Positions 1,856 to 27,572 of a DNA stretch of 64,000 nt are shown piece after piece. Source of the DNA: Vicinamibacterales bacterium (lineage in GTDB: Bacteria > Acidobacteriota > Vicinamibacteria > Vicinamibacterales > UBA2999). Location: assembly GCA_050185275.1 (NCBI GenBank), contig JBFWZN010000005.1:202507-266506 (forward strand). Direction: 5' to 3'. Position numbers and translations under genes: made by a program. The notes under the pieces are model-generated. The model ran no database searches and was not told where the DNA came from. It saw only the letters and a program-made list of their open reading frames with translations. How positions within the stretch are numbered: position 1 is the first letter of the stretch; the number at the start of each line of letters is the position of its first letter.

Positions 1856-3154
1856 ATGACCGCACCACGACGGAGCAGGACCCTTTTCGCGCGCGCGCAG
1901 CAGGTGCTGCCTGGCGGTGTGGACAGCCCGGTCCGCGCATTCGCGGCGGTGGGCGGTTCGCCGCTGTTCATAAAGAGAGGCGCCGGCTCCCGGATCGAGG
2001 ACGTGGACGGCAACCGGTACATCGATTACGTGATGTCGTGGGGACCCCTCATCCACGGGCACGCGCCGCGGGGCCTCGTCCGCGCGGTGGGCCGCGCGAC
2101 CGCACGCGGCACCTCCTTTGGCGCCCCCAGCCCCCTCGAGCACGAGCTGGGCGAACTGGTGCGCCGGCTGATGCCCTCGGTGCAGAAGGTCCGGTTCGTG
2201 AGCTCCGGCACCGAGGCGGCGATGAGCGCAATCCGGCTGGCCCGCGCCTTCACGGGCCGCGACCGCATCGTGAAGTTCGAAGGCTGCTATCACGGTCATG
2301 CCGACGCGTTTCTCGTGAAGGCCGGCTCAGGCGCCACGACGCTGGGCACGCCGACGAGCCCCGGAGTTCCGAAGGCGGTCGTGGCCGATACGCTGCTCGC
2401 GCCGTACAACGATCTCGCGGCGGTCGAGCGCCTGTGCCGGCGGCATCGCGACAGGATCGCCGCGATCTGCGTCGAGCCCATTGCCGGCAACATGGGCGTC
2501 GTGCCCCCGGCGGAGGGCTTCCTCGCCGGCCTGCGGGAACTCTGCAACCGGCACGGCATCCTGCTCGTCTTCGACGAGGTGATCTCCGGATTCCGGGCGT
2601 CGGCCGGTGGGGCGCAGGCCGTGTTCGGTGTGCAGCCCGACGTGACGTGCCTGGGCAAGATCATCGGGGGCGGGTTCCCGGTAGGCGCCTACGGCGGGCG
2701 CGCAGACGTCATGGACCTCATCTCACCGGCAGGGCCCGTGTACCAGGCCGGCACCCTGTCAGGCAATCCGGTGGCCATGACGGCCGGCCTGTGGGCACTC
2801 GGGAAGCTCCGGCCTCGCCTGTACCGCGATCTCGCCAGGCGGGGGACGACCCTCGCGCTGGGCCTGGCCGATGCGGCGCGGCACGCCGGCGTCCCGCTCC
2901 GCGTGAACGCCTTCGGGTCGGTGCTGACGCCGTTCTTCACCTCGGCCGCAGTGCGGGATTACACGACGGCGCTCACCGCGGATACCGACGCCTACGGCAC
3001 CTTCTTCAGGGGGATGCTCAAGCGGGGCGTGTACGCCCCGCCCTCACAGTTCGAGGGCTGGTTCCTCTCGGCGGCGCACTCCGACGGCGACATCGAGCGC
3101 ACACTCGCCGCCGCCGGGGGGGCCATGCGCGAGGTCGCCAGGCGACACGGCTGA
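1856..3154 (+). CDS. hemL: Glutamate-1-semialdehyde 2,1-aminomutase
   Basis: PGGVDSPVRAF, SSGTEAAM, FEGCYHGH, FDEVISGFR, LGKIIGGG motifs. Confidence 0.97.
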   Translation: MTAPRRSRTLFARAQQVLPGGVDSPVRAFAAVGGSPLFIKRGAGSRIEDVDGNRYIDYVMSWGPLIHGHAPRGLVRAVGRATARGTSFGAPSPLEHELGELVRRLMPSVQKVRFVSSGTEAAMSAIRLARAFTGRDRIVKFEGCYHGHADAFLVKAGSGATTLGTPTSPGVPKAVVADTLLAPYNDLAAVERLCRRHRDRIAAICVEPIAGNMGVVPPAEGFLAGLRELCNRHGILLVFDEVISGFRASAGGAQAVFGVQPDVTCLGKIIGGGFPVGAYGGRADVMDLISPAGPVYQAGTLSGNPVAMTAGLWALGKLRPRLYRDLARRGTTLALGLADAARHAGVPLRVNAFGSVLTPFFTSAAVRDYTTALTADTDAYGTFFRGMLKRGVYAPPSQFEGWFLSAAHSDGDIERTLAAAGGAMREVARRHG

Positions 3155-3176
3155 GGGATCGCCCAGCGGAGCACCA

Positions 3177-3215
3177 GGGCGGACGACGGAGCCGTTGAGC
3201 CCCGTCGTCCAGCCC
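3177..3215. terminator. Hairpin between convergent genes, possible bidirectional terminator
   Basis: ggacgacgg...ccgtcgtcc inverted repeat flanked by gggc/gccc; no U-tract. Confidence 0.45.
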
Positions 3216-3222
3216 GAACCCG

Positions 3223-4134
3223 TTACTGCAGCGTGAGCGGCGAGTCGATCCTCACGCGCAGGACCGAGCCCTGGGGCAGGTTGAGGTCCTGGCCCTCGGT
3301 GGCCGCGATGGTGCCGCCCCCACCGATCAGGATGCCCGCCAGGGCGCCCTTGAACCCGCCGAGCAGTCCTCCGATCACCGCGCCCACACCCGCACCGGCG
3401 CCCACGCGCCCCGCTTCACCGCGCAGGCCCTCGCTTTCGAGCGCCTCGGTCACGGTGGCGCGCAGCGGCTGTGCCCGTCCGTTCACGGTGATCCGGTCGA
3501 AGTTCACGGTCATGCTCGCCTGGCGGTTGGTGCGGGTGGCTGGCGTCACCTGGGTGACCATGCCGCGCAGAACCGACCCGGCCGGAATCAGGACACGGCC
3601 GTTCACTTCGAGATCCACGAGGGTCGTCGCCTCGAAGAAGTCCTCGACCTGCGCGGTGGCGGAGTTGAGCGCCTGCGAGAGCCGGACGTCCATCTCGGTG
3701 CCGGCGGGCACCTCATTGGGGTTGGCGGCCGCGGCCGGTCGAGGCGCCGGGGCAGGCCGAGGGGCTGGGGCGGGCGCGGGGGCCGGGGCGGGGGCCGCAG
3801 CCGCCGCGCGCGGCGCGTCCCGGCGGGCATCGGCCCGCAGGTCGTCGATGCGGTCTCGCAGATCGGAATACTCGGCGCGCGCCACCGAAGGCTCCTTCCG
3901 CATCTTCACCTTGAGGTAGGTCACCTCGTCACGGAGTTCATCGAGCGACAACCGGAACTGCGCCGCGCGCGCGGTGTCGCTGGTGCCAAGCACGGTGAGT
4001 TCGCGCTCGGCCTGATAAATGTTGTCCTGCAGGCGCAGGAGATCGTCCTGCGTCATGGTCTGCTGGGCGGCGGCCGGGGCCGGAAGCCCGAGCGCGAAGG
4101 CCGTTACGGCGGCCAGGATGACTGTGCGGAACAT
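3223..4134 (-). CDS. Exported protein: coiled coil, Pro/Ala linker, VirB10/TrbI-like beta domain with glycine zipper
   Basis: GAGGAGG RBS before ATG 4134; signal peptide; VPAGTEMDVRL...IPAGSVLRG...GAGAGVGAVIGGLLGG. Confidence 0.7.
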   Translation of the reverse strand: MFRTVILAAVTAFALGLPAPAAAQQTMTQDDLLRLQDNIYQAERELTVLGTSDTARAAQFRLSLDELRDEVTYLKVKMRKEPSVARAEYSDLRDRIDDLRADARRDAPRAAAAAPAPAPAPAPAPRPAPAPRPAAAANPNEVPAGTEMDVRLSQALNSATAQVEDFFEATTLVDLEVNGRVLIPAGSVLRGMVTQVTPATRTNRQASMTVNFDRITVNGRAQPLRATVTEALESEGLRGEAGRVGAGAGVGAVIGGLLGGFKGALAGILIGGGGTIAATEGQDLNLPQGSVLRVRIDSPLTLQ

Positions 4135-21556: not shown

Positions 21557-22132
21557 CTACTTCGCGGTGAAGATGAAATGCCCCCGGCGGTTCTGCGACC
21601 AGCAGGACTCGTTGTCCTCCATGCAGACCGGCGTCTCTTCACCCTTGCTGATGGCGAGCATCCGATCCGCCGCGATGCCCAGGCCGACCAGGTAGTCGCG
21701 GACCGTCACCGCGCGGCGTTCGCCGAGCGCGAGGTTGTACTCGTTCGTGCCTCTCGAGTCGGCATGTCCCTCGATCGTCACGCGCGTCGTGGGCCAGCGA
21801 CGCAGGTAGTTCGCGTTGCGCTCGAGCGTAGCGCGCGCGTCGTCCCGCAGGGTCGACATGTCGTAGTCGAAGAACACGTCGCTCAAGGGACGCTCCGCGT
21901 TCAGCTGGTCCAGCGTCTTCTGCTGGAAGAGCTCGTCCTCCGACAACTGCCGCGGCGGCGGCGGCGGTGCGGGGGCGGGCGGCGGCGGAGGAGGCGGTGG
22001 CGGCGCGGGCGCGGCAGGCGGCGGCTCCGGGGGAGGCGGCGCAGGCGGAGGCACGTTTCGCGCGCACCCGGTGACGACCATCGCCACGAGCAGCATGGCA
22101 ACGGCGGGGGGGATCAAGCGGCGCACATTCAT
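21557..22132 (-). CDS. pal: Peptidoglycan-associated lipoprotein (OmpA-like domain)
   Basis: VTGC lipobox, Pro-rich linker, FFDYD, IEGHADSRGTNEYNLALGERRA, SKGEE, NRR. Confidence 0.92.
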   Translation of the reverse strand: MNVRRLIPPAVAMLLVAMVVTGCARNVPPPAPPPPEPPPAAPAPPPPPPPPPAPAPPPPPRQLSEDELFQQKTLDQLNAERPLSDVFFDYDMSTLRDDARATLERNANYLRRWPTTRVTIEGHADSRGTNEYNLALGERRAVTVRDYLVGLGIAADRMLAISKGEETPVCMEDNESCWSQNRRGHFIFTAK

Positions 22133-22380: not shown

Positions 22381-22518
22381 GGCAGAGACAGTGGCTGCAC
22401 AGAGACGGTGCCTGCACAGAGACGGTGCCTGCACAGAGACGGTGCCTGCACAGAGACGGTGCCTGCACAGAGCACGGTGCCTGCACAGAAACCGCCGGCA
22501 CAGAGACCGCCGGCACAG
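22381..22518. repeat. 17-bp tandem repeat (VNTR)
   Basis: ctgcacagagacggtgc four exact copies (22395-22462), a fifth with a 1-nt insertion, then degenerate 15-bp gcacagaRaccgccg units. Confidence 0.92.
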
Positions 22519-22610: not shown

Positions 22611-23477
22611 CTATACCGGTCGGAGCATCAGGCCCTCGTTGAGACTGCCCGTCCGGTAGCCACGAGGATCGATCGTCACGGTGGCGTAGCCGGCGGCCAG
22701 CACGGCCTCGACGATCCGCGTGCGCCAGTCCGGCTCGAAGGCCCGGGCCAGATCCTCCTGTCCGATCTCGACGTGTGCCACGGCCGCGTCGTGATGCCGG
22801 ACGCGACAGACACGGAAGCCGATCGCCCGCAGCGAAGCCTCGGCACGCTCGATCATGCGGAGCTTCGCATCGGTCACTTCCGACAGGTAGGGAATGCGCG
22901 AGGAGAGGCACGCGGAGGCGGGCTCGTCCCAGGTCGGCAGGCCCGCCCGGCGGGACAGCTCGCGAATCTCCGCCTTGGAGAGTCCCACGTCATCGAGCGG
23001 GCTGCGCACGCCGTGCTCGCGGGCCGCACCGCGACCCGGACGGTAGTCGCCACGATCGTCGGCGTTGCTGCCATCGACGATGACCCGGTACCCGCGGGCA
23101 GCAGCCAGGGCGGACAGCACCGTGTACAGCTCGCGCTTGCAGAAGTAGCACCGGTTCGTCGGATTGCGCCGGTATTCGTCCTGCTCCAGTTCGCCGGTGG
23201 CCACGGTCTCGTGGAACAGTCCACAGGCGCTCGCCACCTGCCGGGCGAGTTGCCGATGATGATCGGGATAACTGGGGCTCTCGGCCGTGACGCACAAGGC
23301 CGACCGGCCAAGGGTGCGTGTCGCGGCCCACGCCAGATAGGCGCTGTCCACGCCCCCGCTGAAGGCCACGACGACCGATTCGAAGGAGCGAAGGAGGTCG
23401 AAGAGACGGCGCTCGCGATCGGCGGCGCCGCCGCCGGGATCGCTACTCGTCGAGGTCCTCGTCGACCTCGTCGTCAT
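22611..23477 (-). CDS. larE: LarE-family ATP-dependent (PP-loop) sulfur transferase; start uncertain
   Basis: AFSGGVDS PP-loop, RCYFCK, DYRPG, ACLSSRIP, RVRHH, GYRTGSLN. Confidence 0.85.
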   Translation of the reverse strand: MTTRSTRTSTSSDPGGGAADRERRLFDLLRSFESVVVAFSGGVDSAYLAWAATRTLGRSALCVTAESPSYPDHHRQLARQVASACGLFHETVATGELEQDEYRRNPTNRCYFCKRELYTVLSALAAARGYRVIVDGSNADDRGDYRPGRGAAREHGVRSPLDDVGLSKAEIRELSRRAGLPTWDEPASACLSSRIPYLSEVTDAKLRMIERAEASLRAIGFRVCRVRHHDAAVAHVEIGQEDLARAFEPDWRTRIVEAVLAAGYATVTIDPRGYRTGSLNEGLMLRPV

Positions 23478-23676
23478 CGTCGTCGTCCTCGTCTTCCTCG
23501 TCGTCGTCCTCGTCGTCCTCGTCATCGTCGTCGAGGTCGTCGTCGTCCGCGAAGTCGACTTCGTCCGCACCCAGCAGCACCAGGCTGCTTCCGCACTCAG
23601 GACAGCTCACGGGATCGCCCTCCTCGAGGTCCTCTGTGTTGATCTCGTCATAGTCGCATTCGGGGCAGGTCGCCAT
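23443..23676 (-). CDS. LysW-like Zn-ribbon protein with poly-Asp/Glu tail (77 aa)
   Basis: MATCPECD...GDPVSCPECG; 31 of the last 34 residues are D/E; ends EDLDE; GAGGAG RBS. Confidence 0.8.
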   Translation of the reverse strand: MATCPECDYDEINTEDLEEGDPVSCPECGSSLVLLGADEVDFADDDDLDDDDEDDEDDDEEDEDDDDDDEVDEDLDE

Positions 23677-23749
23677 ACGAGCTCCTCGTGTCGATTCGCG
23701 CTCCGCGGCCACCGCCACCTTCGGACGGCGCACTCGCGGCGAGGCTCCG

Positions 23750-23779
23750 ATTATAGCGAGTGGCCATCCCGCATCGCAA
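23750..23779 (-). promoter_or_regulatory. Sigma70-type promoter for the lysW-like/larE pair
   Basis: Minus strand TTGCGA-18 nt-TATAAT. Confidence 0.6.
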
Positions 23780-24202: not shown

Positions 24203-25172
<970 letters not shown>

Positions 25173-25180
<8 letters not shown>

Positions 25181-25940
25181 CGTCATCGCCATCGCCCAGA
25201 AGGAACTCAAGGGCTACTTCGCCTCGCCGATCGCCTACGTGGTCATCGGCTTCTTCGCCCTGATGTTCGGCTACTTCTATTACGCCCTCCTCGTCTTCTT
25301 CCAGCAGCAGAGCATGCAGGCTGGCGGCTTCGGCGGGCCGGAGGCGCTCGACGTCAACCAGCAGCTCATCCGACCCGTGTTCCTCAACGCCAGCGTCATC
25401 GTGCTCTTCGTCCTGCCCATGGTCACGATGCGCACCTACGCGGAGGAGAAGCGGTCGGGCACGATCGAACTCCTGCTCACCGCGCCGCTCACCGACGTCC
25501 AGATCATCCTCGGCAAGTTCTTCGGCGCCATGGCGCTCTACGCCGCGATGCTCGCGGTCACCGTCGTGCACGTGGCCGTGCTCTTCCTGTTCGGCAATCC
25601 CGAATGGCGGCCGGTCGTCACCGGCTACCTGGGCCTGCTGCTCATGGGCGGATGCTTCGTGGCCACGGGCCTGCTCATCTCGAGCCTCACCAAAAACCAG
25701 ATCGTGGCGGGGATGGTCACATTCGCCGTCTTCCTGATGCTCTGGGTCATCAACTGGGTGGCCTCGTTCCAGGGCCCCACCGCGCAGGCAGTCCTCAACT
25801 ACCTGTCGGTCACCGAGCACCTCGACGACTTCACCAGGGGCATCCTCGACACGAAGCACCTCGTCTACTACCTGAGCTTCATCACCTTTGGCCTGTATCT
25901 CACGGTGCGGGCGGTCGACACCGAGCGCTGGAAGGGTTAG
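25173..25940 (+). CDS. ABC-2 permease (GldF-like)
   Basis: KELKGYFASPIAY, AEEKRSGTIELLLT, SSLTKNQIVA; multiple TM segments. Confidence 0.9.
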
Positions 25941-25952
25941 ACGGAGGCGCAC

Positions 25953-27572
25953 ATGACGCATCGAATCCTCGGCATCGTCGGCTGGCTGGGCGTGGCGCTG
26001 ATCTTCGCCGCCACCATCGTGCGGTTCGTCCGGCCCGAGTGGGACCAGTACGTCATCTACGGGGTCCGGGCGGGCCTCGTGGCCGTCGTCCTCTACACCC
26101 TGGGCCAGTGGCGCGATATCCTCGCGTTCTTCGGCACGCGCAACGCCCGGCACGGCGCGGTGGCCGGTGCCGGCGTCCTCATCACGCTCGGCCTGCTGGT
26201 GGCCGTCAACTACCTCTCGACCCGCCGCAACACACGGTGGGACTTGACCGAGAACCAGCAGTTCAGCCTGTCGGACCAGACCTTGCGGCTGCTGCAGTCG
26301 CTCGAGACGCCGGTGACGTTCCTGGTGTTCGACCAGGAGGGCGGCTTCGACCGGTTCAGGGCGAGGCTCGACGAGTACGCGTATCAGTCCGATCAGGTGC
26401 GCGTGGAGTACATCGACGCCGACCGCCAGCCCGCACGCGCGAGGCAGTATCAGGTGCAGGCGTACGGCACCGTCGTCATCGAGCACGACGGCCGTGTGGA
26501 ACGCGTGACATCCGAGACGGAGCAGGACCTCACCAACGGCCTCATCCGCGTGCTCTCGGACGCCCCGCGCAAGGTGTACTTCGCGCAGGGCCACGGCGAG
26601 CGCACGACGACGGACACCGAGCGCACCGGCTACAGCTCCCTGGCCACCCTGCTCTCGCGCGACAACTACATCGTCGATCTCACGACGCTGGCGCAGCAGG
26701 CAGAGGTTCCCGCCGATGCCTCCGTCGTCGTACTGGCGGGACCGAAGACGGACCTGCTCCCTGGCGAGGCGGACATGCTCCGCCGGTACCTCGACACGGG
26801 TGGCGACCTGCTCGTCCTGCTCGATCCGCCGGAAAGCGACGGCGCGGCCGTCCGCATGCCGGTGCTGGAGGCCCTGCTGCGGGAGTGGTCGATCGAGGTC
26901 GGCAACGACGTCGTGGTCGACGCCAGCGGCGTCGGTCAGCTGATCGGCACGGATGCGTCGGTCCCGGTCGCGGCGAGCTACCCGGCGCATCCCATCACCG
27001 ATCGCTTCAACGTGCTCACCGCGTATCCGTTCGCCCGCTCGGTGAACGTGGCGGCCGAGCCCGCGCCCGGACGGACACCCCAAGCCATCATCGAGACGGG
27101 GCCGCGCAGCTGGGCCGAGACCAGCATCGAACTGCTCGAGTCGCAGGGCGAGACCGCGCTCGACGCCGAGCGCGGCGACCGGCAGGGGCCGATCACCATC
27201 GGCCTGGCCGTGTCGGCGCCCGCCCCGGCTGCCCCCGCGTCCACCCCGCCGGCAGAGGGCGCGGAGGGGACCGCCGGCAATGAGGCGGACGCTCCAGCGG
27301 CACCGGAGTCGCGCGTGGTCGTGGTCGGCGACTCGGACTTCGTCGCCAACTATGCACTGGGCATCCAGGGCAACGGCGATCTCTTCATGAACGCCGTCAA
27401 CTGGCTGGCGCAGCAGGAGAACCTGATCGCCATCCGGCCGAGGGATCCCACCGACCGCCGCGTCACGCTCACCGCGAGCCAGACGCTCGGCGTGTTCCTG
27501 CTGTCGATCGTGGTCGTGCCGGCCACCGTCTTCGGCGCCGGCATCTATGCGTGGTGGCGAAGGAGGCAGTAG
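25953..27572 (+). CDS. GldG-family ABC auxiliary component
   Basis: WDLTENQQFSLSDQT, VYFAQGHGE, VVVGDSDF, NAVNWL, C-terminal TM. Confidence 0.85.
   Translation: MTHRILGIVGWLGVALIFAATIVRFVRPEWDQYVIYGVRAGLVAVVLYTLGQWRDILAFFGTRNARHGAVAGAGVLITLGLLVAVNYLSTRRNTRWDLTENQQFSLSDQTLRLLQSLETPVTFLVFDQEGGFDRFRARLDEYAYQSDQVRVEYIDADRQPARARQYQVQAYGTVVIEHDGRVERVTSETEQDLTNGLIRVLSDAPRKVYFAQGHGERTTTDTERTGYSSLATLLSRDNYIVDLTTLAQQAEVPADASVVVLAGPKTDLLPGEADMLRRYLDTGGDLLVLLDPPESDGAAVRMPVLEALLREWSIEVGNDVVVDASGVGQLIGTDASVPVAASYPAHPITDRFNVLTAYPFARSVNVAAEPAPGRTPQAIIETGPRSWAETSIELLESQGETALDAERGDRQGPITIGLAVSAPAPAAPASTPPAEGAEGTAGNEADAPAAPESRVVVVGDSDFVANYALGIQGNGDLFMNAVNWLAQQENLIAIRPRDPTDRRVTLTASQTLGVFLLSIVVVPATVFGAGIYAWWRRRQ

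Follow-up and report, generated by a model that had tools for sequence, protein, structure and literature searches.

Why should a gene for a small LysW-like protein stand directly in front of the gene for the sulfur insertase LarE, and do the two products work together? LysW-type proteins have, to our knowledge, no described function other than that of amino-group carriers, for which LysX-type ligases supply the load, and accounts of LarE have it acting by itself or drawing its sulfur from IscS. The two genes lie side by side on the minus strand, the small gene first and LarE second, in a stretch of 64 000 nt from the genome of a Vicinamibacterales bacterium, the whole of which is referred to here as the window. 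An original prediction, made from the sequence of this stretch, had proposed a carrier system in which LarE thio-modifies the terminus of the small protein or an intermediate tethered to it, with the fallback that the acidic protein is a partner of LarE. A pairing of LarE with a LysW-like protein, whether described as a zinc ribbon, as an acidic tail or as a carrier protein, was not found in a literature search that covered article texts. We have followed up the prediction by comparing the locus, its two gene products and the remaining lar and lys genes across related genomes.

Organization of the locus

The two-gene unit that had been predicted, with its 77-aa CPEC...CPEC ribbon, its 34-residue acidic tail ending in EDLDE, its overlap with LarE and its promoter, was recovered on reading the sequence (Table 1). 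The LarE reading frame opens with an ATG at 23477 and ends with a stop codon at 22611–22613, and because this ATG is the sole in-frame LarE start before the PP-loop, the 3' end of the small gene and the start of LarE must overlap. With the LarE start thus placed inside the small gene, the two genes are translationally coupled. The promoter upstream is of a kind expected 0.1 times in shuffled sequence and found once here, and together with the terminator-like hairpin it brackets the pair. We take the small gene and LarE to form one operon as part of the explanation favoured below, to which as a whole we give an even chance.

Table 1. Features of the small gene–LarE locus in window coordinates
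Feature	Position	Strand	Remarks
Sigma-70-like promoter, TTGCGA-18 nt-TATAAT	23750..23779	−	Upstream of small gene; 10/12 positions match
LysW-like zinc-ribbon protein with polyacidic tail, 77 aa	23443..23676 (including stop)	−	MATCPEC...CPECG
Globular zinc-ribbon domain, residues 1–44 (C4, C7, C25, C28)	23545..23676	−	LysW globular-domain homology
Acidic tail, residues 45–77	23446..23544	−	Residues 44–77, 34 in all, almost only D/E
Tail tip, E-D-L-D-E	23446–23460	−	Conserved tip
LarE, [4Fe-4S]-type (three-Cys) PP-loop sulfur insertase, 288 aa	22611..23477	−	TIGR00268
Overlap of small-gene 3' end and LarE start, 35 nt	23443..23477	−	Sequence read
Terminator-like hairpin downstream of LarE	22493..22515	−	Inside 17-nt tandem-repeat array
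Pal/OmpA-family lipoprotein gene (context only)	21557..22132	−	Usual downstream neighbour of the pair

The surroundings of the pair have features of their own. The region from the LarE stop codon to the Pal gene contains an array of a 17-nt tandem repeat, CAGAGACGGTGCCTGCA (22383–22507; 7.4 copies, 90 % matches), after which comes a 15-nt repeat at 22479–22518. On the other side, divergent from the pair on the plus strand (24203–27572), the translations alone suggest an ABC ATPase, an ABC-2-type permease and a large GldG-like protein; this ABC ATPase neighbour is common to the genomes G040, G033, G035 and G286.

The small protein and its relation to LysW

On its own the small protein scores just below the cut-off of the Pfam LysW zinc-ribbon family (PF21344, Zn_ribbon_LysW; 26.6 bits against 27), and 30 of its 32 relatives match this family, with a best E of 1.4e-15. 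A family profile of the 32 relatives was aligned with LysW chains in the PDB over the whole globular domain (3wwl_A, E 4.7e-9; 5k2m_E, E 2.3e-8). The likeness to LysW noted at the outset is thereby borne out and, to judge by these profile matches, the small protein is genuinely homologous to LysW. The four zinc ligands C4, C7, C25 and C28, along with G29 and L32, are invariant in the 32 relatives. The FYDLN_acid family (PF09538) has the same build of a zinc ribbon with an acidic tail, but it gave weak matches in only two of the 32 relatives (best E 2.3e-4), and the LysW model fits far better. More than 2254 database proteins, among 8000 scored candidates, matched at E ≤ 0.001, so the small ORF is real. 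A fused LarE–LysW form was not found among the longer proteins, where the sole match was a 500-aa protein whose source name is DNA polymerase-1 (weak evidence).

The defining features of LysW are a set of three or four cysteines that bind zinc and an EDWGE motif at the C-terminus, to whose final Glu LysX or ArgX joins the substrate (PMC10433800, in the part available). When set against LysW/ArgW of T. thermophilus (3wwl) and T. kodakarensis (5k2m), the small protein has a homologous zinc ribbon followed by an L-E-V...P-L-E-L strand, and then an acidic C-terminal extension whose position −3 is hydrophobic and whose last residue is usually Glu (EDLDE in the window, and in most of the relatives EDW[DE]E). 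It differs from them in a tail that is about 25–35 residues longer and almost purely Asp and Glu, in the replacement of the Gly of EDWGE, and in the window's clade also of its Trp, so that the exact motif is absent, and in having LarE instead of LysX as its neighbour, no LysX/ArgX ligase being present in the genome.

Other LysW-like genes were also encountered. In genomes G013, G002 and G035 a second, short LysW copy adjoins a LysX gene, with a LysY-type dehydrogenase alongside in two of them, and an exact EDWGE end was seen only in the separate LysX-linked copy of G035. Because these separate LysW–LysX copies coexist in the three genomes, the LarE-linked gene is a distinct paralogue. A third kind, of about 50 aa, ending in GEEE or DEDEE and devoid of Trp, lies between polyprenyl synthetase and STAS-domain genes in a sister order of the same class (L163 in G096, 3074–3226; L164 in G306, 3026–3181). 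In other classes, LysW-like ribbons with acidic tails of varied ends were found away from LarE (L166, L167, L169 and L170), their neighbours including a rhomboid protease, an M28 peptidase with an S1-domain protein, and GTP cyclohydrolase I. Such acidic-tailed zinc ribbons seem to have been put to use again and again within the Acidobacteriota.

LarE and the remaining lar and lys genes

As had been stated originally, the second gene encodes a PP-loop LarE homologue with a CxxC pair and a distal Cys. Its TIGR00268 score of 300.6 bits exceeds the cut-off of 150, and it aligns to L. plantarum LarE (PDB 5udq) with an E of 5.7e-37. Its PP-loop, SGGVDS, occupies residues 40–45, and its cluster cysteines, C110-x-x-C113 and C190, are invariant in 37 relatives, C190 falling one residue past the position of Cys176 of the L. 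plantarum enzyme. Residues S193, R225 and R227, also invariant in the relatives, align to S180, R212 and R214 of that enzyme, which are the proposed binders of the P2CMN phosphate, and in T. maritima LarE three cysteines hold a [4Fe-4S] cluster for which IscS can supply sulfur (both from the available part of PMC9283937). Set beside the [4Fe-4S]-dependent LarE of T. maritima and the sacrificial LarE of L. plantarum, the window LarE has the PP-loop, the CxxC...C cluster ligands and the P2CMN Ser/Arg/Arg set, and LarB and LarC are present in its genome. The part of PMC9283937 available mentions no small partner of LarE; here a small gene precedes LarE, the lar genes are dispersed over different contigs and no LarA turned up.

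The window belongs to contig C5 of a genome rated 100 % complete by marker genes, and a search of this whole genome returned a single LarE, LarB on contig C8 (290 bits) and LarC on contig C1 (442 bits); the LarA domain, Lar_N, was not found anywhere in it. LarE had been called an orphan, a description that does not hold, since LarB and LarC are present on other contigs and the client enzyme alone is missing. The companion statement that no lysX/argX or larA/B/C gene lies in the window proved accurate, the LarB, LarC and RimK-family genes being on C8, C1 and C7. Given the retained P2CMN-binding residues and the presence of LarB and LarC elsewhere in the genome, the window LarE is most likely an ordinary three-Cys LarE with the standard P2CMN function. 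Among the 41 relatives, LarC was found in 39, and Lar_N in 15, leaving 26 without it.

Two observations on LarC may be recorded here. Genomes G028 and G029 have the LysW-like/LarE pair, and LarC (PF01969) was not found in them at E ≤ 1e-10, G028 being 99 % complete. In G020 (C9:80633–81840) and G026 (C10:64885–66088), LarC is encoded in two consecutive pieces (profile positions 1–235/238 and 237/240–374), an arrangement that we take to resemble the split larC1/larC2 of L. plantarum.

A whole-genome search for RimK-family genes found no LysX-type ligase. The sole member over its cut-off, on contig C7, is MptN-like (233.6 bits), adjoins mch and reaches 160.6 bits on LysX_arch against a cut-off of 275.6. 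In a genome without a LysX-type ligase the small protein is not a working LysW, and a lysX-based pathway using it, which would have spoken against the original prediction, is not encoded there. In G000 (C7:222606–226310, L029), the mch gene for methenyl-tetrahydromethanopterin cyclohydrolase (360 bits), the MptN-like glutamate ligase and an adjoining triphosphoribosyl-dephospho-CoA synthase-like gene constitute an H4MPT-type one-carbon gene cluster in an acidobacterial genome.

Conservation of the gene pair

Of 41 genomes of the order, 40 have LarE, and in all of these but G033 and G035, 38 in number, the small gene immediately precedes it on the same strand. A scan of one genome per species, made with a close 10-row alignment that reaches close relatives only, gave at least 369 relatives among the 600 matched stretches listed. 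In the best 80 of these, all from Acidobacteriota and many labelled Vicinamibacterales, LarE lies downstream of the small gene in 78, the remaining two being a locus without LarE in the 831 nt at hand and an incomplete locus. The neighbourhood conservation by which the pairing was to be judged is thus evident in both samples. The intergenic gap is between −27 and about +90 nt in most loci, compared with the 35-nt overlap of the window.

Beyond the order, a sample of 301 genomes of the phylum, whose tallies take in two genomes flagged as unpublished (G186 and G086) on which no particular conclusion depends, contains LysW-like genes in 110 genomes and LarE in 222. Besides the window's class, a single family from a different class, f58, shows the pairing; there the small gene lies within 700 nt of LarE in four of five loci. 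None of 15 LarE loci from the other classes has a small gene upstream, which indicates that in most of the phylum LarE does its work with no such partner. Family f18 (three genomes of one genus) has neither LarE nor the small gene. A joint loss of both genes in G003 was considered and rejected: this genome has LarC and two Lar_N matches and 8 % contamination, and an assembly gap is likelier.

The local gene order is itself widely conserved within the order, running from a P-type ATPase through a divergent PilZ response regulator, the pair and an optional TMEM260-like membrane protein to Pal, and Pal follows LarE even in a distant lineage with a short form of the small protein (see below). Because the synteny is so wide, Pal included, the adjacency of the small gene and LarE is partly plain inheritance and, within the order, weak evidence if taken alone. 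In some loci both flanks have been rearranged and the pair retained.

The tail tip

The terminal residue is Glu in 112 of the 120 nearest homologues of the small protein, as it is in the window (E77), and the last three residues are LDE in 55, FDE in 26 and VDE in 11. At 70 loci parsed from the best 80 of the at least 369 relatives, Trp occupies position −3 in 51 and Glu the terminal position in 61; the tails with a final Glu include 15 ending in EDWEE and 14 in EDWDE, eight other tails end in ED[LF]D and one in RRRR. The tip characteristic of the wider order is W[DE]E, most relatives ending in [ED][DG]W[DE]E and the window protein in EDLDE. The short form of the distant lineage, of 55 aa and ending in DDWEE, DEWEE or EEWQE, likewise precedes LarE. 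The tails of f58 have scattered aromatic residues and a final D, Y or F. These alignments indicate that the tip is selected within a low-complexity tail. A carrier function with a strict requirement for a terminal Glu would be counted against by the eight of 70 relatives that end in Asp and by the D, Y or F ends of f58.

LarE phylogeny and replacement

Phylogenetic analysis of LarE placed the 46 paired sequences of the order in a single clade (SH-aLRT 97), whose sister is formed by those of f58 (89), and the LarEs of G033 and G035, the two exceptions to the pairing, group with LarEs of another class (97). The same foreign-type LarE, 73–82 % identical to that of G033 and 47–52 % identical to that of the window, is found in G110, G146 and G286. 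In all five of these genomes, which belong to families f10 and f12, it lies at another locus, and the old locus, recognizable by Pal, PilZ, the ABC transporter and pyrD, has no LarE. Three of the five retain a small gene at the old locus with an altered tail, ending in ARDG, RNRRNR or EDDWQ, and in the other two the small gene was not found. The altered or missing small gene where LarE is of the foreign type suggests that the typical tail goes with the paired type of LarE, and this link between tree and tail appears to be stronger evidence of a functional tie than adjacency is. The replacement was probably one or two events, not five, and the five genomes evidently run LarE without the typical partner. 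In the three that keep the small gene, the zinc ribbon has remained well conserved (E 1e-17 to 1e-22 when matched to the profile), so a role independent of LarE may exist.

The LarE side of the pair was also compared. Paired LarEs are no more basic than unpaired ones (mean net charge −1.2, n=106, against +0.3, n=15), and an overall electrostatic complementarity with the acidic tail is therefore not seen. Residue 75 of LarE (window about 23253–23255) is Arg in all 115 paired LarEs and in two of 17 unpaired ones, a pattern that may be plain ancestry, since these two unpaired LarEs are the sister group of the paired clade; Arg75 is a candidate contact residue and is offered as a lead only. A predicted complex of the two proteins, computed from an alignment of each and without controls, scored 0.01 and 0.00 against a mark of 0.32 and speaks neither for nor against binding.

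Discussion

The explanation that we favour is that the small protein is an accessory protein dedicated to LarE and descended from LysW, its tail docking on a LarE that carries out standard P2CMN thiolation and its tip lying at or near the active site; we hold this to be about evenly poised between right and wrong. It corresponds to the fallback of the original prediction, in which the acidic protein is a LarE partner, and is favoured over the carrier idea that was put first there. To judge by its conserved residues and by the presence of LarB and LarC, LarE would adenylate P2CMN and, drawing sulfur from its three-Cys [4Fe-4S] cluster, insert it as a step towards the nickel-pincer nucleotide cofactor. 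By analogy with the docking of LysW, the zinc ribbon and the long acidic tail of the partner would dock on LarE, and the tip of hydrophobic residue, acidic residue and Glu would enter the pocket at or near the site of the anionic substrate and the cluster; the partner would carry no lysine or arginine intermediates. More speculatively, it might help LarE by stabilizing or shielding the oxygen-labile open-iron cluster, or by holding LarE to its sulfur supply, and would not be an obligatory catalytic part.

A serious rival, which we nevertheless consider unlikely, is that there is no functional tie at all and that an acidic zinc-ribbon protein with a role of its own, such as that of a general acidic binder or mimic, has hitchhiked next to LarE in a conserved gene order. 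The wide synteny of the order, in which the unrelated Pal gene is linked as faithfully, would fit this well, as would the occurrence of LysW-like acidic proteins in many other contexts within the phylum, the survival of the zinc ribbon in three genomes without a paired LarE and the lack of charge complementarity when paired and unpaired LarEs are compared. Mere hitchhiking does not readily explain, however, why the genes overlap or are very closely spaced at nearly all loci, why the pair outlasts the rearrangement of both its flanks and recurs in a second class (f58), or why the tail and its tip change only where the paired type of LarE has gone.

If the accessory protein we favour does act on LarE, a model for how the pair could work is TtuA–TtuB, in which a three-Cys [4Fe-4S] PP-loop sulfurtransferase is likewise coupled with a small protein. 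The available part of PMC7138817 describes how the flexible C-terminus of TtuB enters the active site of TtuA, where it binds the open iron and stabilizes the cluster. One extension of this analogy, which we regard as improbable, is that the LysW descendant is a third kind of partner for an iron–sulfur PP-loop sulfurtransferase, with its C-terminal carboxylate or thiocarboxylate ligating the open iron in a sulfur relay or as an oxygen shield. A related rival casts the small protein as a sulfur-carrying protein or a ligand of the cluster, on the pattern of TtuA–TtuB, its C-terminal carboxylate or thiocarboxylate binding the unique Fe and delivering sulfur for P2CMN thiolation. This lies close to the original idea that LarE thio-modifies the tail, and we consider it distinctly improbable. 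LarE does belong to the same mechanistic class as TtuA, being a three-Cys [4Fe-4S] PP-loop enzyme (PMC9283937, in the part available), the C-terminus of TtuB provides a precedent for binding the unique Fe and stabilizing the cluster (PMC7138817, likewise in part), the tail tip is conserved and the two genes are translationally coupled. TtuB, however, is a ubiquitin-like beta-grasp protein with a Gly-Gly end and E1-like activation, and the same fold and end mark the sulfur carriers ThiS and MoaD, whereas the small protein is a zinc ribbon with an Asp-Glu end; no gene for an E1-like activating enzyme or a desulfurase lies in the conserved neighbourhood. Moreover, the tip is not uniform, either among the relatives ending in ED[LF]D or in f58, and T. 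maritima LarE is served directly by IscS, according to the part of PMC9283937 available.

It is very unlikely that the small gene is mainly an expression device, an upstream ORF whose translation sets that of LarE through the overlap and whose peptide is itself of minor importance. The 35-nt overlap and the short gaps of most other loci would suit such a device, but a leader ORF needs neither the invariant zinc ligands, G29 and L32 nor a family of more than 2254 homologues. The weakest of the rivals is an amino-group carrier in a LarE-dependent pathway, with an amine compound on the gamma-carboxyl of the terminal Glu and LarE thiolating the carboxylate of that compound in place of LysZ: the homology to LysW, the resemblance of the terminal Glu and the hydrophobic −3 residue to EDWGE (motif as in the available part of PMC10433800) and the position of LarE in the place held by LysX beside canonical LysW are in keeping with it, yet we give it very little credence, as the genome has no LysX-type ligase, this LarE keeps all its P2CMN-binding residues and is the only one to serve LarB and LarC, and some of the relatives end in a residue other than Glu.

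If this reading is right and LarE has a partner descended from LysW, the known uses of the carrier fold would be widened and a new player added to the synthesis of the nickel-pincer cofactor. The bacteria that share the pairing are a large soil-dwelling group, and the majority of them possess LarB, LarC and LarE without LarA; such LarA-less lar sets bear on what else the nickel-pincer cofactor serves. The pairing also bears on how bacteria living in soil and water operate a cluster enzyme that is sensitive to oxygen: were the small protein to act as an oxygen shield, aerobic soil bacteria could run an oxygen-labile step in the synthesis of the nickel-pincer cofactor.
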